From Eledone cirrhosa (Eukaryota), in the NCBI GenBank assembly GCA_964016885.1, contig OZ024752.1, positions 1,550,001 to 1,614,000 of the forward strand: a stretch of DNA of 64,000 nt, read 5' to 3'. The notes beneath the pieces were generated by a model. It searched no databases and had not been told where the DNA came from. It saw nothing but the letters and a program-made list of their open reading frames with translations. Below are positions 2,884 to 59,195 of this stretch, piece after piece. Each line of letters starts with the position of its first letter. Within the stretch, counting starts at the first letter, position 1. The translations under genes and the position numbers were made by a program.

Positions 2884-5800
2884 ATGCCTAGAAAACGTTC
2901 CATATCATTATATGGAAGGTCATCTTCAGAGGCTAAGAGAAAGAAAACACAGCGATCTGAAGAAAGTGAAGAAGTTCGGCATGCCCGTCTAGCTGCTAAC
3001 AGAGCCCAAATCAGTTTTAGCACGAGCACACCATTTGGATGAAAGGGAACAAAGGACTGCTGCTACACGAGAACAACAAATTAAGGAACAGCAGCAAATT
3101 AGACGAAATGCTAATCAAGCACATCGTTCTATTGCCTGGACAGAAGAACAAGCGACAAGTAAAATGAACTGACTGATGGGTGCTTTTTCTTATGACCCCC
3201 AAAAGGACTACAGCAGTAATCCGCAAATAAACATTGGAAAAATGAAGAAATGCTGCCAATATTGTGGTGCCAAGAGGTGGGCAGCAGAAACACCAAGTCT
3301 ATGCTGCTCAAAAGATAAAGTGAATCTTAAAACAATACAAAAACCTCCTGAATTTCTGAAGAATCTTCTCCTTCAGCATACACCAGAAGCACGACACTTC
3401 AATAAATACATCATAACATATAATTCTGCCTTTCAAATAACATCTTTTGGAGCTGACAGGAATGTGACTGACTTTAGATTCTGTACAACTTATAAAATTC
3501 AGGGACAGTGTTACCACTTAATGGGTGCCCTTCTGCCACTTTCACAGGAGCCTCACAAATTTGTGCAGGTTTACTTCATTGGTGAAAATGAAACACAGGC
3601 GCAACAAAGATGTACCAATGGCCATGGTGGATTGCAGTTTTACATAGTCATAAAGTTACGAGAAATGCTTCACTAAGATCACATGTACGTCAGTGTGTTT
3701 AAATATGCACTGGAGCATATGAACAACACCAGATCGTAAAATCATCATTAGGGCAGACAAACGCCCAGCTTCAGTACATGAACGCAGATTCAATGCACCT
3801 GTCACTGATGAAGTTGCAATCATTATGTTTGATGAACAGCATGAACGACGTGACATTGTTTTGCAAAAACGAAGTTGACATTAGGAGCGAATTTGTGAAA
3901 CACATAGAGCCTATGATTCCCTCCAATATCCGCTCTTCTTTTGGAATTGTCAAGATGGATATCATTTTCAGCTACGGCAGATCAGCCCAGGAACAGGACA
4001 AGAGACTGGCTGATCAATCAGCTGCAAAGAATTCTATGTTTATCATTTCATGGTACGAGATCACTTTAATTAAGTTCTGCGATTCAAAGAAGTAACCAAC
4101 CAGTTCATGGTGGACATGTATGCCAAAATTGAAACAGAAATATTGGGTTTTCTGCGAAGGAATCAAACTAGGTTGAGGGCACATAACTACATCCACCTTA
4201 GAGATGCTGTCAGTTCTAATGTTGACCCAAGAAATATTGACCAGCCAGTCATACTACCATCAAACTTCACGGGAGGACCACGTTACATGCATGTACATAT
4301 ATGAACGTACGCAAGATGCAATGGCCTATGTCAGAAAATTTGGTCGGCCAGATCTCTTCATTATATTTAGGGCGGTGAATTGGCAGTATCGGTAGAGGGT
4401 TGGACGCCATGCTTTCTAGCATAGTTACGTCCCTTTACAGTCTGAGTTCAAATCCCGCCGAGGTTAACTTTGGCTTTCATTCTTACGGGGTCTATAAAAT
4501 AAAGTACCAGTAATGTACTGGTTAATTGCTGACCTTGTGCCGTAAGTAGAAACAATTATATTTACATGCAATTCAAACTGGTCAGAAATATCAAATGAAT
4601 TATTTCAAAATCAAAACCAAAGGATCAACATGACCTCATTGCTCGGGTTTTCCATGAGAAGCAAAAAAAAAAAAACTCACCTGACTCCTAAAAGAAGGAA
4701 GTATCTTTGGTGAGCTTAGTGCTTGGATGACCACTATTGAGTGGCAGAAGAGAGGTCTTCCTGACTCTCACACACTAATCTGGTGCAAGGAGAAGATAAG
4801 ACCAGATGATGTTGATAAGATCAGTTTCAGCAGAGTTTTCTAATAAATGTGGTGATCCAGAGCTCTTTGAACCCATCAAGTCCAAACTCATTCATGGTAC
4901 ATGTGGAGTCATCTATCCAGCCTCTCCCTGCACGTACTATCAAAAATGCAGCAAACATTATCCTAGAGCTTTTATTTGGGAAGCTCGGACCGACAATAAT
5001 GGATACTCCATTTATCGTAGGCGTAGATCAGAACATGGAGGTAATACTGCAAGCCTAACAGTTCGAGGAGAGTCGCTGACCATAAACAATCAGTGGGCCG
5101 TCCCACACAACAAACTGTTGTGTAAACTTTTAAAAGCTCATATCAATGTACAGTATTGCAGCTCCGTCAAGGCAATCCTATATGTCACAAAATATATCAA
5201 CAAGGGCAGTGACATGGCTACCTTTATTACTGACAAAGAACTCAATGATGGTGGGCTGGACGAGGTCAAACAGTATCAAACAGGTCGATACATGTCCAGC
5301 AATGAAGCTATCTGTCGAGTCTTTGGATTTGATATCCACCAAGGCCAACCAACAGTGATCAACCTCGCAGTCCATCTGGAAAATGGACAGAGAGTGTACT
5401 TCACTAAGATAACTGCTCATCAGTTGGCACAAGCATCACATGACTCTACACTAACTGCTTTCTTTAAACTCTGCCAGAATGATGAATTTGCTCGATCCCT
5501 CCTATATGCTTAAGTCCCAACATACTACACGTGGACCAATTGCAAGACCTGGAATCGAAGAAAGCAGGGTCATTTAGTGGAAGGTCATGAAGTCAAGTCA
5601 AGTGATGCTATTGGACGTGTTTACAATGTCCATCCCAACAACAGAGAATGTTATAATTTACGGCTACTTCTGCATACTGTTCGAGGACCATCGTCATTTA
5701 AGCATCTTAGGTACTTCCGAGGAAGGGAGTCTGCAACATACCAAAAAGCATGTAAACAGCATGGACACCTGCATAACAATGGACAATGGAAGAAGTGCCT

Positions 5801-7430
5801 AGAAGAAGCAACAATCACTCAAGTAGCCAGTCAAATTAGACAATTATTTGCTATTATGCTCACAGCATGTGGAATTGATGAAGCTCATCTACTCTGGCAG
5901 GAGTACAAAAAAATATATATATCGGACGACTATCTACACCTAGCCCGAAGATATCATGGCAATATGTATATGGAATATACCACCAGGATTTACAATCAAG
6001 CTCTCTGCGATCTGTCCCATCGAGTTCAGGCAATGAATAGCACATTAGCTAACTGCAGGATGCCAGAGCCAGATGAAGAAATGGAGGTAGCACAATACAT
6101 TTTCAGGAGACAAACTCCGATATTCAAGCATTGCGTAAGTTTGTGGATGAAAATGAACCTCAATTGATGGATGACCAGAAATACGCCTACCACAACATCA
6201 TCAAAAACATTCAAAATGACAGGGGAGGACTTTTCTTCATCGATGCTCCTGTTGGCACTGGCAAGACATTCCTCATAAACCTCCTGCTTGCAAAAGTTCG
6301 CCAAAAGCCACATATGGCCCTTGCTGTGGCTTCAAGTGGAATTACAGCAACACTTCGGGATGGAGGAAGAACTGCACACTCCATGTTAAGCTGCCCATAT
6401 ATCTTACACGGCATGAACAATCTTTTTGCAACATCAAGAAGAACCCACCCAAGAGCAAGCTTCTGCAAACATGCAAGATGATAATTTGGGTTGAAGCTAC
6501 TATGAGCCATAAAGGAGCAATTGAAGCTTTGAACCGGATGATAAGGGATCTGAGAGAAAATAGTTGCATAACGGGAGGCGTAACAATGGTTCTTGCTGGT
6601 GATTTCAGACAAACTCTGCCTGTAATTCTTCGAGGGACTCGAGCTGATCAGGTCAATGCTGTCTGAAAACATCCTATCTCTGGCCCCACTTTCAGCTGCT
6701 GAAGCTTACAACCAACATGCGTGTGCACTTAATTGGTGACGAAGGTGTCAGTGAGTTTGCCATCCAACCACTTAAATTGGGAAATGGACTTCTTGAAAAG
6801 GACTCCAATGACCATATTCAGTTGTCATTTGGCCATATCATTGACACAGAACAAGAACTGACTGCCAGAGTGTTTCCAAACATTCAGACCAGGCAATGTG
6901 ATCCAAAATGGCCCTATGAACGAGTAATCTTAGCACCTAAAAATGTTTCTGTGAAAGAAATCAACAGAAGGCTGCTGGAGTTGTTACCGGGAGAGAAAAT
7001 ATGCTACAAATCAGTTGACACAATCACTTCTCAAGACCAGGTTGTAAACTATCAAACTGAATTTTTGAACAGTCTTGAACGAGCGAGAATTCCTCCGCAC
7101 AACCTGATACTGAAGCTTGGAGCATCGGTTATGCTACTTCGAAATCTGGATCCTCCAAAACTTTGTAATGGCACAAGACTCATCATCAAAAATATGATGT
7201 CCAATGTTCTAGAAGTTGCAATCATGTCAGGAAAATTTGCTGGTGACAATTGTTTCATTCCCAGAATACCTCTGAAGCCAAATGATTTACCATTTGAATT
7301 TCAAAGACTTCAATTTCCGATCAGGCTAAGTTTTGCCATAACCATTAATAAATCACAAGGGCAATCATTGAAAGTCGTTGGGTTGAATCTGGCAGATCCT
7401 GTCTTTTCACATGGTAAACCCTATGTTGGC
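2884..7430 (+). pseudogene. Helitron RepHel (HUH Rep + PIF1-like helicase), disrupted by frameshifts, stops and a SINE
   Basis: N-terminal MPRKRS...; CQYCGAKRW..E...CC zinc motif; YNSAFQITSFG; GGPRYM; GRPDLFIIFTCN; EWQKRGLPDSH; YVTKY; Walker A DAPVGTGKT; GDFRQTLPV; ILAPKN; CNGTRL; QFPIRLSFAITINKSQGQS; VFSHG. Confidence 0.95.
4370..4554 (+). mobile_element. tRNA-derived SINE inserted in the Helitron Rep region
   Basis: Same family as 1148-1333; 10-bp TSD attatattta (4360-4369 / 4555-4564); removal restores PDLFIIFTCNSNW. Confidence 0.92.
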
Positions 7431-8003
7431 ACAAGAGAGAGTGAGGGGAGAGAGAGAGAACGTTTGTTTTTGAGTGTGGAACGGTCAAATATATATTTAC
7501 TTTAATGAGAAAGAGAACTTATTACATTTCATACGAAACAACAATTATTCAAAAGCAACAGATAAATTTATTCAACAACAAAAAAAAATAGCGATAAATG
7601 CTTTTTAAAACATCTATCAACGAACGTGGAAGAAAGAAGTATCAGTTCATTTACTATACACAATAATATCCTCTATGAGGTCACTAAACCTGCTAGAAAC
7701 AGCAGCTAACTCTCCCCCATATCACACCACTCCCTACTGTCTTAAATTTAGAAAACATACATTAGACAACCATGCAGAACAACTCCATCGCAACTCTGTT
7801 GTTCGGCTGGCATCGTCTACGCCCGTGTTGCGGAAGTACTGTGAAACAATAAATTCCAACACTTCTTTGCACAGAGATAATATCCATAGGCGAAACTACA
7901 ATTGCCACCGCTGGCGCAGCTCTGCTTCAGCAGTCCAGGTCTGCACAGACAAAAAAGTGCTGCCAAAAAATGGGTGGTGCAACCTAACTTTGGTAACTTA
8001 CTA

Positions 8004-8778: not shown

Positions 8779-8844
<66 letters not shown>

Positions 8845-8848
<4 letters not shown>

Positions 8849-9425
8849 AGTATGTATACATACATACATATATGTATACAGACGTACAGTAGTATGTATA
8901 TATATACATACATGCACAAATATAGATATATGTACGTATGGATTTACGGAACATTTATTATAATGATCGGATTGTTTGTAAACAAACAGCCCGAATTATT
9001 AGCCGTACAGTCTTCGGCAACCATCGCTGCCCTTTTGTTCAACACTGACAAAGGAACGATGAACTACCTTCTAGCTTATTAGTTGTCATCAGCACCGTAT
9101 ATATTCCTGTCAGTCGATTGAACGTTTGAAAGTATATACTTTCAAACGTTCAATCGACTGACAGGAAGGTATACGGTGCTGATGACAGCTAATAAACTAG
9201 AAACTAGTTTATCGTTCCTTTGTCAGTGTTGAACAAAAGGACAGCGATGGTTGCCGAACACTGTACGGTTAAAAAATCGGGCTGTTTGTTTACAAATAAA
9301 CCGAGCATTATAATAAATGTTCCGTAAATCCATACGTACATATATATATGTGTGCATGTATGTATGTATATACATTCTACTGTACGTCTGTATACATATA
9401 TGTATGTACATATACATACTTATAT
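8845..9425 (+). mobile_element. ~580-bp palindromic hammerhead-containing element next to (TA)n
   Basis: Inverted arms centred at 9135/9136 (aagtatatactt); arms moderately diverged. Confidence 0.8.
9173..9215 (+). ncRNA. Type I hammerhead ribozyme motif
   Basis: acggtg-CTGATGA-cagctaataaacta-GAAA-ctag-TT-tatcgt; the mirror arm has catcgt, which pairs better in stem I. Stem II is weak. Confidence 0.65.
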
Positions 9426-9940
9426 TTAAGTATCAGCCGATTGGTCGATTAGGAGCTGTTGATAATGGTAGATTTGTTGGTGGAGTTTATTTCTCCGGTG
9501 ACACAAATTTTTGCTTTATTAGGCAATGATGACGGAATTTCTAATGTTATTGCTGAAATATTGTGTTTTTGTCACTATCTGTTTTATTGTTTCTGGCAAA
9601 TTCTGACTCGTATTTTCAATTGCATGCAAACGAGTTGCAGGCAACATGTCACCACCGTGTTCACTGTAGTTGTAATTCTAGGAGTTGATGTTATCTTAGT
9701 TAATTGTTGTTGTTATTAATTGTTGTTTATATTATATTTGCTGTTGTGGTCCTAGTGTTTGTTGTGAGAAAGAAAATGTCCTCGACGAAGGCGCTAACAG
9801 CATATGATTTGGGGATATTTGATTCCTATAATATGAAGCCGTCTCCTGAGATTTCTGCCACAAAGCAAATAATTCTGTGCATAACTGTGGTGAATTATAA
9901 GCTAGCAAAACACACGTTCAAAAATATATGAATATTCGTT

Positions 9941-22337: not shown

Positions 22338-22377
<40 letters not shown>

Positions 22378-22383
<6 letters not shown>

Positions 22384-22800
22384 CAGAATAATAATAAATG
22401 AAGACATTCACATAATCAAAATATGTTTTATTATATATGTTTCGAAGGTACTGTGCTGTTTTTTCAGTACGTCCTCATTAGATAAAATACATGAATTGAG
22501 GTATGACATACCTCAACTGTCTTGATAGTTCAATTCCAGTACTACCAATACTGAAATTGAATCATCAAGACAGTTGAGGTATGTCATATATCAATTCATG
22601 TATTTTATCTGACGAGGACGTACTGAAAAAACATCACAGTACCTTCGAAATATATATAATACAACATATATTTTGATTATGTGAATGTCTTCCTTTATTA
22701 TTATTCTGAATAATATTAACTCCAGAAAACTTTCATTGTAGAGTGCTTTTAATCTATTGTAACAATATATTCATTGAGTAATCAATGAATTATATTAATC
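22378..22800 (+). mobile_element. Palindromic hammerhead-containing element
   Basis: Inverted arms ~22378-22715 centred at ~22546; starts at the edge of a (TA)n tract. Confidence 0.78.
22603..22664 (+). ncRNA. Type I hammerhead ribozyme motif
   Basis: ttttat-CTGACGA-gga-c-gtactg...cagtac-c-ttc-GAAA-tatata-TA-atacaa (mirror arm ataaaa). Confidence 0.75.
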
Positions 22801-23495: not shown

Positions 23496-24307
23496 ATTAG
23501 AATTGGAGCTCTGAAATAGCAATATATATATGGATGTATATATAATGTATTTTGCAATACACTTTATACTTAATTAAAAGCATTTTGAAGACCGTAAGCT
23601 ATTGTTTTAAAGTAGTGACAAATTCACTCACTTTGATCTCAGCAAACAGGGGAGATAAGCCGACAAGACTTGTTTCGCTTTGGTTGAAGCTTATCAAGGC
23701 CAACTACCCCACCTGTTTGCTGAGATCATTGATGTTATATTCTTATAGAAATCTAGTAAATAATCAGGAGCTGATTATGCAGAGCGGTTGTTGGTCCGGC
23801 AGAAATTAAAAATTAGAATTGGAGCTCTGAAATAGCAATATATATATGGATGTATATATAATGTATTTTTCAATACACTTTATGCTTAATTAAAAGCATT
23901 TTGAAGACCGTAAGCTATTGTTTTAAAGTAGTGACAAATTCACTCACTTTGATCTCAGCAAACAGGGGAGATAAGCCGACAAGACTTGTTTCGCTTTGGT
24001 TGAAGCTTATGAAGGCCAACTACCCCACCTGTTTGCTGAGATCATTGATGTTATATTCTTATAGAAATCTAGTAAATAATCAGGTCCTGATTATTTACTA
24101 GATTTCTATAAGAATATAACATCAATGATCTCAGCAAACAGGTGGGGTAGTTGGCCTTGATAAGCTTCAACCAAAGCGAAACAAGTCTTGTCGGCTTATC
24201 TCCCCTGTTTGCTGAGATCAAAGTGAGTGAATTTGTCACTACTTTAAAACAATAGCTTACGGTCTTCAAAATGCTTTTAATTAAGCATAAAGTGTATTGC
24301 AAAATAC

Positions 24308-24310
<3 letters not shown>
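23496..24310 (-). mobile_element. Tandem 316-bp hammerhead monomers plus a 5' inverted arm (retrozyme-like)
   Basis: Direct repeat 23496 to 23812 (period 316); snap-back at ~24086 (aatcaggtcctgatt); TA flanks on both sides. Confidence 0.85.
24153..24196 (+). ncRNA. Type I hammerhead with U3-A8 variant core (also on - strand at 23658-23701 and, mutated, 23974-24017)
   Basis: ggcc-TTGATAA-gctt(caacca)aagc-GAAA-caag(t)cttg-TC-ggct, inside a long extended stem gatctcagcaaacagg...cctgtttgctgagatc. Confidence 0.75.
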
Positions 24311-24356
<46 letters not shown>

Positions 24357-25184
24357 CGAAGGAAATGTGGTACGGAACCAGATGGACCGTAACGCACCAA
24401 AGTACTCAATACTTAGGGTAGTAGAGTGGGTAATAGGAACAAGTAGGATCCCGACGGCTGAGCTCATGCCGTTTCGACGGCTAATTCAGTCCAGAATTAG
24501 CCGACGAAACGGCTTGAGCTCAGCCGTCAGGGTCGTACTTTTTCCTATATATAAATATATACACATGTGTATGTATACAAGGTTTTTATCAGACTAAGTG
24601 TGTCTATGTATGTATCTCCTCGTTGTATTTGACACCACCTACACATCCATCACACCATCATAAACACCATTACCAAAAACAACAACACCACACCCACACC
24701 ACACACAATTATTAGTCACAAATATATTCCAATCTGTCTACCGGCAATCCCCCCCCCCCCACACACAACAGCCCATCTCAGCCTCCGACTGTCACCACCA
24801 TCTTATCATCACATCCACCCCCACATTCACTACACGTGAAAACATCCTTATGATCGATTCCACCAATCAAAACAATTCATATTGACCGACATATGAACTT
24901 CTGACTTTATCATATAGCATGTATTCATTTTCTACTAGCATTTTAAGGGGTCCGTCGAGCTGCAGATTACAGAGTCGATACGGTAAGATCGATACAGATC
25001 GAACCATGAGCTGATCAGTGGCGAAACGCGCGTCACCAACATATAAATGTAATGAAGGAATAACCAATCGTCCTTGTTATCTTTTCAATATTATACACTC
25101 TGTATAGCTCTACACCTCACACAGAAGTGAATCTAAACATCGAGTGCTCACCCGGGTGAACCTACAGTAACTCCAAGTTCCCCT

Positions 25185-26052: not shown

Positions 26053-26270
26053 TATATTGTTATACTTTGGGAGGGTCATGTTGCCAATAAGAAACACACG
26101 CACTAGTTTCTTTCACTCCAATTTATTATAAATTAAATTTATAATAAATTGGAGTAAACGCGACTGGTGCGTGTGTTTCTTATTGGCAACATGACCCGCC
26201 CAAAGTATAACAATATCGGTTTCAACACAAGTTTTCAGATAAAGAATCTTGCTAAACAAATTCAGAAACG
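26053..26270. repeat. Snap-back repeat element in (TA)n
   Basis: Inverted arms ~26053-26215 centred at ~26135; same family as 8553-8678 but with a different fold-back point. Confidence 0.75.
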
Positions 26271-26947
26271 AAATATATATATATATATATATATATATAA
26301 CGAAGGAGTTGTGGTAAGGAACCATAACGCACCAGAGTACTCAATACTTAGGGTAGTAGATTGGATAATAGGAAAAAGTATGACCCCAACGGCAGAGCTC
26401 AAGCCGTTTCGACGGCTATTTCTGGGTCCAATATTTCTAGGTCCAGAAATAGCCGTCGAAACGGCTTGAGCTCTGCCGTCGGGGTCATACTTTTTCCTAT
26501 ATATAGTGAGAATTCAAAAGGTGTATTCAAATTCGATATAGAACTCAGTGCAAAGGGCGAGTTAAATTAATGAGACATTTTCACGTAGATTGGATTTTCC
26601 ACTCGTGTAGGTGCTGACATTTGGAAGCGGTTAATAGCACTGAAATATTATGTGAAAATATACTGTATAAAGACACTGCTTTGTTCTGTTTTGCTTGTCA
26701 CACTTTGCCATTTATATATTTCTACTGCATTGGACTGGCTTTCTGTAATCTTATCAGACATATAGTACACACACAAACACACATATAAAAATACACACAC
26801 ACACACATAAAAACACGTACAAACACCCCCTCCCCCCACATATATATATATATAGAGGAACGAGTAGGACCCCGACGGCTGAGCTCAAGCCGTTTCGAGT
26901 ACTTTGGTGCGTTATGATCCATCTGGTTCTGTACCACATTTCCTTCG

Positions 26948-31222: not shown

Positions 31223-31255
<33 letters not shown>

Positions 31256-31259
<4 letters not shown>

Positions 31260-31974
31260 CGTAAAATAAGAAAATTATAAAATTAACTTACTAAATTTTC
31301 ACTCCAACTAATTAGTTTCTGAAAGGGAATAAACATACTTTCCGAAGAAGCGTACGGAGAAGCCTTTCGTCATCAGGGAAGTCTATTCTCAGCTAAGTTT
31401 CCAGGCAATACGTGGACACAGGGAACTTATACAAAAATAATTCAGTGGATGGAGATAGGCAAAGCGTGGACTAAATTCCAAGCCATTGAGAAAATCACTG
31501 CCTACTGCGTCGGTGGCAAATTCAAAAGAATCAATCATGTGACATCGAGGTCAATCAATGGAGAGTGGTTTTTTAAGAAGACAGCAGCCGGACTGTTACT
31601 ACAGTAGCAGTTTTGGCCAATTTTTGCTCGAGAAATAATTTGGAGATAATTATAAAGAATTAATATATCTAGTAACATACATATACACAGATGCATACTT
31701 ATGCTAGCAAACATATAGGTTTTGTCTTAGTAACTATGTGGTTCAATGCATGGGGATGCAGAACAATAATATGAGTGACGTAACATAAGAAAATTATAAA
31801 ATTAACTTACTTACTAAAATTTCACTCCATTTTAGTAAGTAAGTTAATTTTATAATTTTCTTATCTTACGTCACTCATATTATTGTTCTGCATCCCCATG
31901 CATTGAACCACAAAGTTACTAAGACAAAACCTATATGTTTGCTAGCATAAGTATGCATCTGTGTATATATATGT

Positions 31975-31979
<5 letters not shown>
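31256..31979 (-). mobile_element. ~520-bp terminally redundant element plus inverted arm, in (TA)n
   Basis: 31256-31306 is repeated at ~31775-31829; hairpin ~31670-31979; CTGATGA on - strand at 31370-31376; same family as 57572-58258. Confidence 0.82.
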
Positions 31980-32042
<63 letters not shown>

Positions 32043-32629: not shown

Positions 32630-32662
<33 letters not shown>

Positions 32663-32667
<5 letters not shown>

Positions 32668-33534
32668 TAAGTTAAAAAATGTACATCCATATATGTATAC
32701 TGAAATACTAGTATGCATATGAATACACACACGTATACATATGTAGATGTACCAAGTCTTTCACTGGTTACTTTACTGTGAGTATCCAGCTATTCTGTAT
32801 GTAAACACACAGACAAACCGGTTTTTAGAGTCATACTGGTTTTTGAGGAAACACCTTTCCTCTATTCTCCAGAAAGCCAGACAAGGAATATTGAACTAGT
32901 TTCGTTGTTGTTACAACTCATCAGCAATATTTACCTATCTACCGGCCTTTCTGGAGAATCGTAAAAGCACATATCGTTATATGCTTTTTCTATGAAAATT
33001 AGTAGTGGGTTAATTAAGTGAGTTACAAACGAAACGAAATTTAATTTCGTTTCGTTATTTGTTTTTATCGTCTCCGTTGAACCGGTACATACTCACACTC
33101 TATGCAAATTAGTCTGCCCACTACTAATTTTCATAGAAAAAGCATATAACGATATGTGCTTTTACGATTCTCCAGAAAGGCCGGTAGATAGGTAAATATT
33201 GCTGATGAGTTGTAACAACAACGAAACTAGTTCAATATTCTTTGTCTGGCTTTCTGGAGAATAGAGGAAAGGTGTTTCCTCAAAAACCAGTATGACTCTA
33301 AAAACCGGTTTGTCTGTGTGTTTACATACAGAATAGCTGGATACTCACAGTAAAGTAACCAGTGAAAGACTTGGTACATCTACATATGTATACGTGTGTG
33401 TATTCATATGCATACTAGTATTTCAGTATACATATATGGATGTACATTTTTTAACTTAATTGTTTAAGCGTCAGTCATACAAAAGTGAGTTACAAACGAA
33501 ACGAAATTTAATTTCGTTTCGTTATTTGTTTTTA
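32663..33534 (+). mobile_element. 467-bp terminally redundant hammerhead element with a 347-bp 5' inverted arm, in (TA)n
   Basis: Arms 32663-33009 / 33117-33463 almost identical; 33016-33067 repeated at 33483-33534. Confidence 0.88.
33195..33239 (+). ncRNA. Intact minimal type I hammerhead ribozyme motif (mirror on - strand at 32887-32931)
   Basis: aatattg-CTGATGA-gttg(taacaa)caac-GAAA-ctag-TT-caatatt: 7-bp stem I, 4-bp stem II, palindromic stem III. Confidence 0.9.
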
Positions 33535-33579
33535 TATATATATATATATATATATACATATATATATACATGTATATAA

Positions 33580-33692
<113 letters not shown>

Positions 33693-33822
33693 TATAAATA
33701 AATGTGAAGTCTAAAATCCAAAGAAGGCTCGATAAGGATAAATACACATCATATAGTTAAGGGTGAAAGCATTAATTCTTTGTTTAAACTTTAATCTTTT
33801 ATTTTAATATATATATATATAT

Positions 33823-40858: not shown

Positions 40859-41307
<449 letters not shown>

Positions 41308-49755: not shown

Positions 49756-51555
49756 TATTTATATATATATATACACACTCATAGTCTTGGATGCATTTAG
49801 TCTAAACAACATTTACTAATATATTATTGTATATATATACATGTATCTATGTATGAATATAATGGATGATGTGTTATGTGTGTGTCTCTGTCTCTCTATG
49901 TACAGTTATGTCTCTGTCCGTATTTACCTTCCGTACGGCAATGTTTCAACAAATAAACATCGATAAAATGTATATTAAATCAGAAGTCATTAGATGTGTT
50001 CTATATTTCTCTAATATAGTTTTGCAAAACAATATAAGGATGTATCGTCACAGACGACAGTAAATGTCATTATTGTTTCTTTTCGGTGTAGTGTAGAAAC
50101 GTTAGAATATTCACTTTCGCTTGGAATTATAGTCATTATTTTCCCCCCTTAACAACATGGCAGGTAAAGAAATGTGAAGAATTTGAAATTTGAAGTTTAC
50201 GATAATAAGTTGTGGCCGAGAGAAAAAATCTCGTCAATTTGCATATAGTTTTTCTTTCCATTCAGAGCATAGAGTAGGAAATGGATTAAGTGTTAGTTTT
50301 ACACTAGATTGTAAAGAAATAAAATCCTCGGAGTGTAGTTAACATCCATATTGTTTTTAATAACTTCGTTTTCCATAACTTGTTTAAGTTTTGCTCTACT
50401 GGAAAACCTTACAATTTAATATAGCAGGGAAGATAGTGAAGGGAAGGAAGAAATATACCCATTGACTGCGACGTAGTGGTCTCTAGTCATTTGCAAGCCC
50501 TCTTCTCTCTTCTATGACTGACAGCTATCTAACTCATCTGTGATTTGGAAAATATATTAAAGAAATACAAAACACACAGAATGTCTTCTGCTTCTCTAAA
50601 TATTTGTCTAAAAGGAATAACGGATAAAACATATATTTTTAATAATTTATTTCCTGACATAGCAGTAAACTAATCTTTGCAAACAGGCTGTGTTAATGGT
50701 CCTTCGAATCAAATTGATGCTTTCTGAAAGATTCGATTCTCAGCTGACTACAATCATAAAGAAAGTGAAATGCATTTTGCACCAAACGTTTTAGATAATA
50801 TCTGAGATACATCGAATACAAAAATTAAGAAGCTTGTGTATAATGCTACCTACCAAATTCAGAATGACATCTGTCGTCAATGCAGAGGAGCCTCTCGACA
50901 TCGAATTTAGCTTAACCGTAGTAGCCATCTAGAGTTAAGTGTATGGGAATCTCCTAAACAGTGTGGGTTCGCTAACAATGCTGGTACATAAAAGATCTGG
51001 GAGCTGCCAAATTGCATTTGCTGCGTCTCCGTACCCACGTTAGTAGACATGTGCTCGTGCACGAGGCTGTATATGTTTATATGATTGTGCGTATGCTGTA
51101 TGTAGAAGCATGATGATGGCGATCAGTAGCACTATATCGGTGTTTGTATCTTGAAAGCGCGCATATATTTAGCGTTGTGTTTTCGTAAGCTTCGGATACG
51201 TTTGCATTAACCCGGACGCTTATGCATTCGTATATATGCGTGAATACGGGGACACTACAATTCTATGTCTATCTGTCTATCTACTTAACGAAGGAGTTGT
51301 GGTAAGGAACCATATGGACCATAACGCACCAGAGTACTCAATACTTAGGGTAGTAGAGTGGGTAATAGAAAAATGTATGACCCCGACGGCAGAGCTCAAT
51401 CCGTCCAAAACATCTCGAGCTCTGCCGTCGGGGTCATACATTTTCCTATCTGTTTCTGTATATACATATCTGGCTATCAATCTATCTATCGCTCCATCTA
51501 TCCGACTGTCTGTCTGCCTGACCATTTCTCTGCCTATTTATATATTTATCTGTCA

Positions 51556-54500
51556 GCCGGGAGGTGGGGGTGTGGTTGCCGTTTTGCTGCGGAAACACCT
51601 GGACCTCGTAACACAGACGGTACATCTGGACCCGGAGGGTCGACTGGTGCTCCTAGACGTTGACGGTAGTGAAGGTGGAGCCTTCAGGATGGTGGCCGCA
51701 TATGCCCCATCCGCGACACCGAGGTCAGACTTCTTCAAACGTCTAGAGACTTTTCTAGGAACGTCCCGCTCCCTACTGTTAGTTAGGCAGTACTTGACGG
51801 GGGCCATTGTCAACAACAGATGGCGGTACTCTCTCATGAGGGAAGTCAGATTATACTCGATAGGATTTAGTTAGAATTAGTGTTAGATAGAAATAAGACC
51901 TAAAAGGAACTGGTAGATAAAGTAAAAGAGGCACTTAGGAGTGACAACGTAGCCAGCGTGCTAGCAACGAGAATGGCCTTGGACCAATTCAGGAGCAAAA
52001 TACGTGCTCTGGGAAACGAGGAAGCCAAAGCTGTTAGCTGGGCCCGGGTGACAGAGGCGAAAAGTGCAACAAGTCCACGATTCGGTCTTTGAAGGACCAA
52101 GACGGACGCGTGATACGTGAGCCGAAGCAGATGTGCGCGGCCTTTCAGCCGCACTTTGCTCAAACTGTTCGGGCAGGGCGGTGCGACGGGAGGGGCTATG
52201 GATTTCGGTCCATACCTCGATGGCCTGCCGCGACTCTCGGACAGCGAGGCGAAGTTCTGCGAAAGGACGATTTCGGCCGCTGAGATAGGGGACGCGCTGA
52301 GCCAATGCGGCAACGCAAATCTCCAGGTCTCGACGGTCTACCCTACGAATTTTACGTAGCAATGCCGCACTTGTTCTCCGGTCTCCTAGAAGCGGTCTAC
52401 TGCAACTGACAGCAGAACGGGAGAATTCTCAATTCTGTGACCAAGAACGTAGTCACGTTAGTCAGGAATGACGAGAATAAGGGGCATGACATAGGAAACT
52501 TCCGGCCCATAACTCTGCTAAACACAGAGTTACAGATTTTGGCTAAGGTGTTGGCAAAAAGGCTGGCGCTTGTCGTCAAAAACCTGGTGGGAGAAGCGTA
52601 GACATGCGCAATCCCGACCAGGTCCATACACGACAACATCAACCTCATGCCATACATCATAGAGAGGGTAGGGTGTAAACCCGGCTTCTGTGGGGCCCTG
52701 ATCAACTTGGATCAGTCTAAGGCTTTCGATAGGGTTGGCCATCGTTACCTGGATGCGGTGCTCGAGGCGGCAGGCTTCGGGCCCGTGTTCAGGGCCAGGA
52801 TTGCTGCAATGCAAGCAGCAACATCTGCTCAAGGGTCAAGGTGAACGGCTACCTCTCGGAGCCGTTCCATATCACGAGATCAATCCGACAGGGATGCCCT
52901 CTCTCCTCCCTTCTGTACGTACTGACTCTCGAGCCACTACTGCGGAAGTTGGGGCTATTGCAGGGCATCTCTTTTGAATAGGGACTACGAAAAGCGGCGT
53001 CGGTCTACGCCGACGACTTTACAGTAATGGTGTCGAGCACCTAGAAAATCGGGGAGGTCGGCACCTTACTGAAGGAATACGAAAGGTTCACAGGAGCGAA
53101 GCTGAACCGGGACAAATCCATCGGTTTGCAACTCGTAACGTGGAGAGGCAAACCGATGCCTTCCGATGGTGTCGTCGGACGCTGGACGGAAGGACCGGTA
53201 AAGCTGCTCGGGGTCTAGTTTGGTCCGGACCTCCAGGTGGAGAAGAACTGGAACGAGGTGACGGCCAAGGTGGTTGCGCTCATCCAGAAGTGGGCCGAGA
53301 GCAAACTATCCTTTAAAGGTCGAGCGGAGGTGGCGAACTCTTTTATAGAGTCCGTCATCTACTACCGCTTGACCGTCGTGCCTTGTCCAGCCAAAACGCT
53401 CACCAAAATGGATCGGGCGCTCTTCCAATTCCTTTGGAAGAAACGGGCTCCTTTGGTGAGAAGTTCCATCTGCTGCCAACACCCTTCAAACCGAGGTCTG
53501 GGGATGCCGTGGTTGACGATGGGCAAACACACGCTCAGGCTGCGGCACCTCCACGTATTCCTCAGCGGACAAACGGTGTGGGCCCCATTCGTGAGGCAAG
53601 CTTTCCCACGACTCGTCTCGCTGCAGTCCTGGGTCAAGCAAAAGCCGAGGAAAATGGGCGACTGGCACATCCAATGTGCTAAGGCACTCACAGTCCTCTG
53701 GCAAACGGACCCGGCGATCAGTGGAGACTCCACTTCGTCATTCTATAGAGGGTCAGTCCGCAGCAGGTGCGACGACGCGCTCGGAGAAATTCTGGGCGTA
53801 GAGGAGGACGAACTGGCCTGTCTGTTCGGTAGGACCTTCCGCCCGTGACCGATGGACAACTTCCAAAAGTTCCTGGCCTGGCAGTGGTACCGAGGAACTC
53901 TACCAGTTCGAGACAAGCTCTACAGACACGGGTGCCCGGGCAGGGACCCTTCGAAAAGGATCTGTCCCAGATGCGTGCGCGACGATGAAACCGTCGCGCA
54001 CACATTTGTACACTGCTCGGGCGTTACCGACCTGTGGGGCTAGCTATGTAGAACGACTATTGTCGTGGGTGGGACCACTCTAGTTGACCACCGAGTCCAT
54101 TGTCACAATCAAACCGCCACCCTCCTTCAAAAACAAAGGATAAGTGGTTTTCCTATGTGTTATGTCTATGGTGAAATAGGTTATATGGTGGACGAGGTTA
54201 AAAGGGCTGAGGTCAGACACCTATACTCTCTGGCGAGCAACTGATTCGTTTTTACAAATATCATTTTGGAAGAAGAATGAGGATGGAGAGAGAGGTGCTG
54301 TACCCCAGTAAATTTTATGTAAGGTGGGTGAATGTGGCAAAGATGGCTCGAGTGGTTGGGCCTTCTCTCTATATAAGGTTGAGGAAAAAGAGGAAGAGAG
54401 GAAGGAAGTACTCGCTCTTCGTGCTCTTGGAGATGAGGGTTGTACATTTTGTTGGAGTGTGTACAACCCCTGTGTAACGCCTCACCCCTATTGGGGATAT

Positions 54501-57571: not shown

Positions 57572-57578
<7 letters not shown>

Positions 57579-58258
57579 AATTAGTATATCTACTAACATA
57601 TATATACAGATGCATACCTATGCTAGCAAATATATAGGTTTTGTCTTAGTAACTTTGTGGTTCAATGCATGGGGATGCAGAACAATAATATGAAAGACGT
57701 AAAATAAGAACATTATAAAAGTTATAAAAATTAACTTACTTCCTAAATTTTCACTCCAACTAATTAGTTTCTGAAAGGGAATAAACATAGTTTCCGACGA
57801 AACGTACTGAGAAGCCTTTCGTCATCAGGGAAGTCTATTCTCAGCTAAGTTTCCAGGCAATGCGTGGACACAGGGAACTTATACACAAATAATTCAGTGG
57901 ATGGAAAAAAGCAAAGCGTGGACTAAGTTCCAAGCCATTGAAAAAATCACTGCCTACTGCGTCGGTGGCAAATTCAAGGCAAATTCAAAAGAATCAATCA
58001 CGTGACATCGAGGTTAATCAGTGAGGAGTGTTTTGTTAAGAAGACAGCAGCCGAACCGTTACTATGAACTATAGTAGCAGTTTTGGCCAATTTTTGCTCG
58101 ACAAAATAATTTGGAGATAATTATAAAGAATTAGTATATCTACTAACATATATATACAGATGCATACCTATGCCAGCAAATATATAGGTTTTGTCTTAGT
58201 AACTTTGCGGTTCAATGCATGGGGATGCAGAACAATAATATGAAAGACGTAAAATAAG
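57572..58258 (-). mobile_element. 550-bp-period terminally redundant element (family of 31256-31979, different permutation)
   Basis: 57572-57708 is repeated at 58122-58258; CTGATGA on - strand at 57822-57828. Confidence 0.85.
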
Positions 58259-58840
58259 TTTAGGCAATCGCTATTGCGTAATCTCTTTAGAATATTTATC
58301 CGCTTGCCAATACATAGTCCACAAGACGGATTGCCTGTTGCGTTTGGCTTGGACTTAGTGATAGCTTTCCATTGAATGGAATAGTCTATACTTGAGTACT
58401 TGAGGGACCGACCATACGTGGAAACGAGTTTTGTGGATGATCGTTTGTTCGGGTACCTAAAGGTCGACTGATGGTTCAGGAAGCGTTCCTTAAATCGGCC
58501 CTCCGCCATACCCACATAGGACTTGACCTCCTGTGATTGATTTGGTCGGTTGAAAGTGACCAAATCTTCATTAACTACGGCGGGTGAGTTGCATTGCTGT
58601 TGAAGGGGACAAGCTTCAGGCTTTCGGCAAGAGCACCCTGGTGGGGTATTGCTCTTAGGGCTGTTGGTGATGTGGGCCTTCATATTCGTAGCGCAGGAGT
58701 ACCCTAGTTTTACTTCGTGTCTGTTAAAGATGGAGCTGTATTTGTGACCTATGGGTAATTGTCTATCTAAGAGGGCTACAAATGTGTTTCCTACATTAGT
58801 TTTAACGTTGACTGAGAAGGGAGGAGAGAACCAGATTGTT
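58259..58840 (-). pseudogene. Penelope-like element C-terminal linker plus GIY-YIG endonuclease fragment
   Basis: WFSPPFSVNVKTNVG...IFNRHEVKLGYSC..NM...CSCR...CPL...C...YVGMAEGRFKERFLNH...CGLC; truncated at both ends. Confidence 0.85.
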
Positions 58841-58842
58841 TG

Positions 58843-58990
58843 TAAGAGAAGCAGAGGCCGGCAGCCAAAACGATGGCTTGATAATGTCCATTTATAGACT
58901 GGAATTGATCTTTTCTCTTTAAAGTCTGCTGTTAGAGAACGAACTTTGTGGAGAAAGATACAAGTCTGCAACTGGCGGAGTTTAGCGTAA
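58843..58990 (+). mobile_element. RTE-like LINE 3' end
   Basis: Matches 19963-20100 (RSRGRQPKRWLDNV plus tail). Confidence 0.75.
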
Positions 58991-59195
58991 ACGTATCTTG
59001 TTTACTTAAAGCGACATAACCTAATTATGATTTTTAAATCAAAGTCCTGATATTGTCACAGTTAGTGACTAAAATGAACGTTATTTACGTTCATATGAAT
59101 TTTATACACACATATAGCAAATAAAATAGACACTGTGATCAGTAGTGTATTGAAATGGAAATTCATTTCCTTTATTTTATTATCTTACAATAATA

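Follow-up and report, generated by a model that had tools for sequence, protein, structure and literature searches.

Metazoan non-LTR retrozymes are described as short, low-GC, non-coding tandem units with a type I hammerhead ribozyme, ranging from monomers to multimers and present in thousands of copies (PMC7229834; bioRxiv 10.64898/2026.07.22.740005). Their dependence on Penelope-like elements (PLEs) was proposed in 2020 (Cervera & de la Pena, PMC7229834) and later gained support from the co-occurrence of the two and from homology to terminal repeats (Li, Clavereau & Pollet 2026, bioRxiv 10.64898/2026.07.22.740005). In the accessible text of both sources, the mobilizing enzyme and the circle as template are posed as questions. 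We found no description of the ends of a retrozyme insertion in the open-access literature, the accessible text of these two sources included. The insertions of PLEs with a C-terminal endonuclease are reported to have an inverted truncated arm, a tail that is frequently confined to one end, and targets of (TA)n, and the origin of the inverted arm and the one-sided tail was called undefined (PMC8557442). A PLE protein was reported to nick and extend both strands at AT-rich DNA, with two internal RNA starts that bound the tail, and was modelled as a dimer; unprocessed RNA was its main substrate in vitro, and ribozyme cleavage was dispensable (PMC11167929).

Here, we describe an insertion in the window, which is the whole 64,000-nt stretch of Eledone cirrhosa DNA analyzed, and the family of 466-nt repeats to which it belongs. 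By every sequence feature examined, the family would belong to the animal non-LTR retrozymes: it has the same short, low-GC, non-coding tandem unit, type I hammerhead, monomer-to-multimer range, and thousands of copies. The unit of 466 nt exceeds the norm of ~300 nt given for metazoan retrozymes and lies inside the range of 51–972 reported by Li et al. Many Xenopus retrozymes are described as homologous to PLE terminal repeats, whereas no such homology was found for the 466-nt family among the PLE families sampled. The family shares with Neptune-type PLEs, as these are described (PMC8557442; PMC11167929), the partial tandems, inverted 5′-truncated arm, one-end tail, two internal starts, (TA)n targets, and a hammerhead upstream of the ends. 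It differs from them in having no ORF and a tail of ~70 nt instead of the 30–40 nt described for PLEs. Its arms can also hold many clonal turns of the short unit, unlike those of Neptune-type PLEs. In L1 twin-priming, cDNA is likewise primed on both target strands, and the two products join head to head through microhomology, but they represent separate stretches, and the position of the second start varies. In the 466-nt family, in contrast, the arms have hundreds of bases in common, and neither start varies. The link between PLEs and retrozymes is thus already in print; what is new is the family, as judged from its sequence a new animal retrozyme family that bears the PLE insertion footprint, and unusually clear genomic evidence on retrozyme insertion. 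Insertion ends, inverted arms, and target sites, for which published accounts of metazoan retrozymes offer no counterpart that we found, were resolved from the genome sequence alone.

The window copy is inserted in a region of 28% GC between (AT)n tracts at 32630–32662 (left) and 33536–33703 (right), with one type of end, termed B, on the left and another, termed A, on the right. The short, tail-less arm (32660–33009, minus strand; ~350 nt) covers unit positions 49–398 and ends at site B; its outermost 3–5 letters are common to the arm and (AT)n. Six inserted letters (33010–33015) form the head-to-head junction between the 5′ ends of the arms. The long arm on the plus strand has 520 nt and consists of unit positions 415–467 of a preceding turn (33016–33068) followed by one full unit (33069–33535; position 1 of our numbering is 33069), which ends at site A. 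The sequence of site B (unit 393–398) recurs in this arm at 33461–33466, within a small predicted hairpin, and is the inferred second start of reverse transcription. The tail of ~70 nt between sites B and A (33467–33535, with a hairpin at 33495–33523) is present in the long arm only. The circular fold of the window unit has a predicted energy of −146.5 kcal/mol, compared with −91.7 ± 5.7 for 40 shuffles. No frame of at least 150 aa was found at the copy, and the RT and GIY-YIG ORF of an autonomous PLE is absent.

An earlier sequence-only reading of this locus had reported inverted arms of 347 bp with about one difference, and the arms at 32663–33009 and 33117–33463 indeed differ at a single position (32885/33241). 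The direct repeat that it gave as 52 bp is exact and spaced by 467, as stated, and has 53 nt (33016–33068 = 33483–33535). Its monomer of 467 nt holds for the window copy; the usual unit has 466 nt (range 465–469), and the extra T, present in both arms here, was found in 2 of 121 regions. The 53-nt repeat simply marks the point at which the long arm stopped; in other copies the stops are at scattered phases and after up to ~19 units.

The type I hammerhead, identified from sequence, Rfam, and covariation, is located at 33195–33239 on the plus strand. As read from the sequence, it comprises CUGAUGA (33202–33208), stem II GUUGU/ACAAC (33209–33222), GAAA (33223–33226), and the palindromic stem III ACUAGU (33226–33231), with the predicted cut after U33232. 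The surrounding extended stem I (33168–33261) was also correctly recognized before: the pairing 33168–33179/33250–33261 folds with z = −4.4 (0 of 200 shuffles). An antisense hammerhead in the left arm (32871–32942, minus strand; predicted cut between 32894 and 32893), which mirrors that of the right arm, refines the earlier description. Rfam Hammerhead_HH9 scored 37.3 bits for one copy and 38.6 bits for the left-arm copy (E values of 8e-6 and 3e-6 over the window), both below the gathering score of 52. Of the two earlier terms for the hammerhead, perfect and canonical, the first is too strong: the cleavage triplet is GUU, and stem III can form no normal monomer hairpin, just a single pair capped by a palindromic loop of four letters. 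GUU is a weaker hammerhead cleavage triplet. The dimer-type stem III proposed earlier is consistent with cofolding, in which two unit copies are predicted to pair via the ACUAGU palindrome. Such a weak palindromic stem III resembles that of the axolotl hammerhead HHR_Amex1, which is reported to cleave poorly alone and well as a dimer (PMC7229834). Among the Xenopus retrozyme dimers reported, only one of nine cleaved in vitro (bioRxiv 10.64898/2026.07.22.740005). This result, the GUU triplet, and the sub-threshold Rfam score count against the mechanism proposed below.

The ribozyme is well preserved in the family. Of 287 full units, 277 have an intact core; the triplet is GUU in 234 and GUC in 53, so that position 17 is U or C in all 287. 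Between the 466-nt family and a 424-nt sister family (64% identical), six stem pairs are changed on both sides. The covariation alignment contains 11 sequences of essentially two lineages, and the core is kept across it, with a change in GAAA in one of the 11 rows. The hammerhead fold has been kept through compensatory changes.

The window copy itself was regarded in the sequence-only reading as an intact example, a description that does not fit its structure. With one hammerhead per strand, it cannot be cleaved twice to free an RNA of unit length, and folding of the full transcript predicts a 347-bp duplex in which both ribozymes are buried. Two consecutive hammerhead units, by which Li et al. 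define an active copy, are absent here; many other loci of this family have them. Rather than a source, the window copy is a product of the family's cycle, and we infer a dead-end product of ~1.1 turns from A and 0.75 turn from B. As a single copy, it is ordinary within its family.

In the 3.0-Gb genome, the 39-nt hammerhead core matches exactly at 4,933 places (control, 0), and there are 1,978 exact junctions of the A end with (AT)n, from which the family is estimated at ~2,000 insertions or more in (AT)n. The B-end junctions number 757 on the forward strand alone. The best other copies are 98–99% identical to the window copy, which indicates a young family and bears out the recent insertion proposed earlier. 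The regions read number 121. Of these, 39 were the best matches, a choice that favors long arms, 26 were further consecutive core-bearing loci on the sequence C1, and 56 came from lists of ends. Some tandem arrays exceed 20 units. In all 121 regions, the unit is followed by itself, (AT)n, or unrelated sequence, and there is no shared ORF. The 424-nt sister family and another of ~440 nt are both older and non-coding. A head-to-head copy of the 424-nt family lies in the window at 8840–9430, with the same fold and end positions and a hammerhead core at 9179. The ~440-nt family (L280–L309) is an old third sister associated with (AT)n.

Read on the ribozyme strand, copies end at unit position 467 (site A) or 393–398 (site B) and pass straight into (AT)n, and their 5′ ends are scattered. 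The ends were classified in 65 insertions: 44 had A and B, one had A and a tiny B arm without (AT)n, two had B and B (both complex), none had A and A, 16 had only A, and two had only B. One apparent A and A pair on C1 (L247) was rejected because it consists of two separate insertions. A test anchored on B, which is less biased by the choice of loci, used every B end among the first 100 matches listed, corresponding to 70 insertions. The opposite end was A in 57 (in L259 the A end is trimmed and abuts another copy, and in two the second arm is only ~10 nt), B in two, none in eight, and unread in three (p = 4e-12 against independent choice). Thus, A is opposite in 57 of the 59 two-ended insertions. 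Copies with other start phases, which the sequence-only reading anticipated, were not among these; all copies end at the two fixed sites. That reading had also named fixed ends next to a PLE ORF as evidence against it: of these, the fixed ends were found, with no PLE ORF joined to the unit. The family has the inverted 5′-truncated arm, the two fixed 3′ ends with a one-sided tail, and the (TA)n target that form the signature of PLEs, and its insertion is very probably of PLE type. Target-site duplications are unreadable inside (AT)n. Stalling of B arms in the tail was considered from the first set of loci (12 of 38) and rejected, as it was not replicated in the second (6 of 39, 6.3 expected).

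The template was analyzed in simple two-armed insertions (38 of 65 regions in the first set and 39 of 56 in the second), with single-ended, tiny-armed, and complex insertions left out. At heritable sites, the two arms of one insertion mismatch at 14 of 639 (first set) and 14 of 1021 (second set), compared with 6742 of 23765 (28%) and 12718 of 37239 (34%) between insertions. The cut site of the ribozyme is crossed by 127 of 154 arms, 71 of 76 in the first set, where the choice of loci with long A-ended arms inflates the count, and 56 of 78 in the second. Only three of 154 arms stop within 4 nt of the cut site (3.0 expected; none in the first set and three in the second, 1.5 expected in each), and a linear cleaved monomer was therefore rejected as the usual template. 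Of the 28 arrays with at least three full units (three regions with two insertions were left out of the comparison), 27 have distinct haplotypes, with a difference of 0.67% within and 2.7% between arrays. Nine, including arrays of 19 and 21 units, differ internally by at most 0.2%. In six of the 28 arrays, every full unit has variants that no other insertion shows, and such private variants are common to both inverted arms in 19 of the 77 insertions. By the shared haplotypes, the crossing of the cut site, and the clonal arrays, each insertion consists largely of clonal copies of a single unit, read from its two ends across an intact ribozyme site. These observations also sustain the earlier suggestion of reverse transcription over more than one unit of a circular or tandem template. 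At the inner junctions, homology of at least 3 nt was found in 22 of 52 gapless junctions (6.7% expected), and letters were inserted in 25 of the 77 insertions, some of them copied from nearby unit sequence.

A few individual cases touch on the form of the RNA. In L003 (1266–1499), one arm has its 3′ end at unit 163, beside the predicted cut, followed by (AT)24, the only such case in 121 regions and possibly the result of priming on a self-cleaved RNA end. The A arm of L252 (416–716) is exactly 165–466, as expected of a linear self-cleaved RNA, a single case within chance. In run X4, labelled as another organism, one self-closing 496-nt contig covers exactly one unit; a tandem array gives the same graph, and the contig was not taken as evidence for a circle.

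Here, we propose a mechanism based on the ends and the arms. A protein-free 466-nt hammerhead repeat is likely inserted by a Penelope-type enzyme supplied in trans, which cuts both strands and copies one RNA, probably a circle, from each cut end. Tandem arrays elsewhere in the genome would be transcribed, and neighboring hammerheads would cut as dimers via the ACUAGU palindrome. Dimer cleavage would free 466-nt monomers, which would then be ligated into circles. A dimeric RT/GIY-YIG protein of the PLE type would bind around the tail and nick both (AT)n strands, one DNA end priming at A and the other at B. Each primed end would copy a variable length, up to many turns, and the two cDNA ends would be joined by microhomology-type repair. 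A broader reading, which may equally well prove right or wrong, is that rolling-circle reverse transcription inserts animal retrozymes: a dimeric PLE-type enzyme would read one 466-nt circle from two fixed starts, one per subunit and cut strand, and write clonal mirror arrays of up to 20 or more units into (AT)n. In such a case, the lineage (three families, at most 64% identical) would have outlived its sequence link to the helper and be known by shape, not by a common terminal repeat.

Given that the two arms share a haplotype and that 127 of 154 arms extend through the ribozyme cut, the template was likely either a circle or an uncut multimer. We lean slightly to the covalent circle; a ligated circle is the simplest account of one-unit clones, and the uncut multimer stays a real rival. 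According to the latter explanation, which we regard as the less probable one, the PLE enzyme uses a linear uncut multimer transcribed from a tandem array, the arrays are later homogenized by unequal exchange and conversion, and the ribozyme only trims transcripts. The use of unprocessed RNA by the PLE protein in vitro (PMC11167929, as reported there) favors an uncut multimer as much as a circle. Mosaic arrays or periods of two, three, or four units occur in L039, L046, and L087, and one variant is present in seven of 12 units of one arm of L090, so that part of the length and uniformity of arrays can arise after insertion. The higher-order periods themselves (three and four units in L046 and L023, two in L087) point to multimeric templates or later unequal exchange. 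In the second set, 6 of the 22 A arms that exceed one unit have their stop shortly downstream of site B (2.2 expected, p = 0.019), which fits two primers on one linear RNA, and the window copy, with its start at 415, has this geometry; the enrichment is weak and confined to one set, being absent from the first (5 of 38, 3.8 expected). Against a linear multimer, nearly every array has its own haplotype, and private variants are fixed in arrays and shared by both arms, which requires that insertion passes through a single unit or that conversion acts with great efficiency across the inversion. It is quite improbable that only one arm was reverse-transcribed and the other is a fold-back copy trimmed at site B. 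The common haplotype of the two arms and a few symmetric junctions in hairpins of the unit (e.g., L031, L080, L233, L258, and L260) would agree with fold-back, but in 32 of 77 insertions the B arm exceeds the length that folding back the A arm could give (the A arm is longer in 39), the two arms generally show no relation in inner phase, and B-only insertions occur (2 of 65 and 8 of 70).

Two further explanations concern the nature of the unit rather than its template. The unit may be the orphan terminal repeat (pseudo-LTR) of a yet-unfound autonomous PLE, with the copies as its 5′-truncated insertions; we consider this improbable. The end rule and the targets are as in PLEs, many Xenopus retrozymes are reported to match PLE terminal repeats (bioRxiv 10.64898/2026.07.22.740005), and the PLE families of this genome were sampled in part. 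Nevertheless, the unit never adjoins a common ORF in the 121 regions, arrays reach at least 20 units, and the older sister families of 424 and ~440 nt are equally non-coding repeats. A DNA-level element (MITE, foldback, or satellite) with an incidental hammerhead might be suspected from the long inverted arms and tandem arrays, but its probability is close to negligible. The equal terminal inverted repeats of MITE and foldback elements were not found, because the two ends, A and B, differ by the tail and no A and A pair exists among 65 insertions. The inner ends vary like 5′ truncations, and each fixed end is the 3′ terminus of the strand that carries the ribozyme, a polarity by which a DNA-level origin is already largely refuted. 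The covariation of the hammerhead and the invariable U or C at position 17 also argue against an incidental ribozyme. Insertion by a PLE-type enzyme acting in trans remains the preferred reading.

A 777-aa ORF with RT and GIY-YIG domains and a Cys linker of the Neptune type is present in the genome in many intact copies. Both ends were detected in seven of the 20 loci read for this Neptune-type family, and all seven have A and B. A second Neptune family has a tail of 63 nt, and the two arms of its locus L209 end in B and A, respectively. Two Neptune families of this genome have hammerheads with a U3-A8 core, in contrast to the canonical C3-G8 core and long stem I of the 466-nt family. In Neptune-type terminal repeats (L127, 6600–6810; 3′ regions of L204, L209, and L213), the U3-A8 hammerheads have a palindromic ACCGGU stem III, and the tails are ~40 and 63 nt. 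No terminal repeat homologous to the unit was found in an autonomous PLE among the families sampled: a two-family profile over 130 PLE-anchored loci and the window matched only separate retrozyme insertions. A search for a partner starting from the RT and endonuclease remnants of the window, Pfam GIY-YIG, and the older sister family retrieved several PLE families and no common terminal repeat. Fragments of PLE protein, from several families, are present in 12 of the 121 insertion regions. The only fragment that abuts an insertion, in L049, had suggested a retrozyme–PLE chimera; this was rejected, as the fragment is a decayed host remnant in the flank.

The PLE remnants of the window were not recognized by Pfam. 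The segment 36837–38937 is a decayed copy (75–78% nucleotide identity) of the young Neptune-type PLE (L117), which retains an intact 777-aa ORF at many loci. At 57575–59001 (minus strand) and in a sister piece at 31250–31990, a PLE endonuclease remnant is followed by a repeated unit of ~550 nt with a hammerhead (57828 and 31376, respectively). The 3′ end of the ORF recurs at the end of the ~550-nt unit, which looks like a retrozyme derived from a PLE by internal deletion.

The 466-nt family offers a short RNA, two mapped starts, a strict rule of A with B, clonal arms, and a genome with many intact 777-aa PLE ORFs. The in vitro assay published for PLEs can thus address both the enzyme and template of retrozymes and how the inverted arm and one-sided tail of PLEs originate. 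Should a PLE protein insert this non-coding RNA in trans, the RNA would also define the minimal recognition elements.

Other elements of the window have related shapes. An inverted hammerhead-bearing element lies in (AT)n at 23522–24332, with a weak match to Rfam HH9 on both arms (24.6 bits). Palindromic insertions at 160–498, 22376–22716, 24433–24548, 26054–26216, 26368–26500, and 40859–41307 are mostly beside (AT)n and are probably short head-to-head insertions of other families; the first two contain hammerhead-like cores. A GC-rich remnant at 51173–53848, without a match in Pfam, presumably resembles the ORF of a non-LTR retrotransposon. The broken ORFs at 3173–7505, which we take to be Helitron-like, include a last one with a Pif1 helicase 2B domain.
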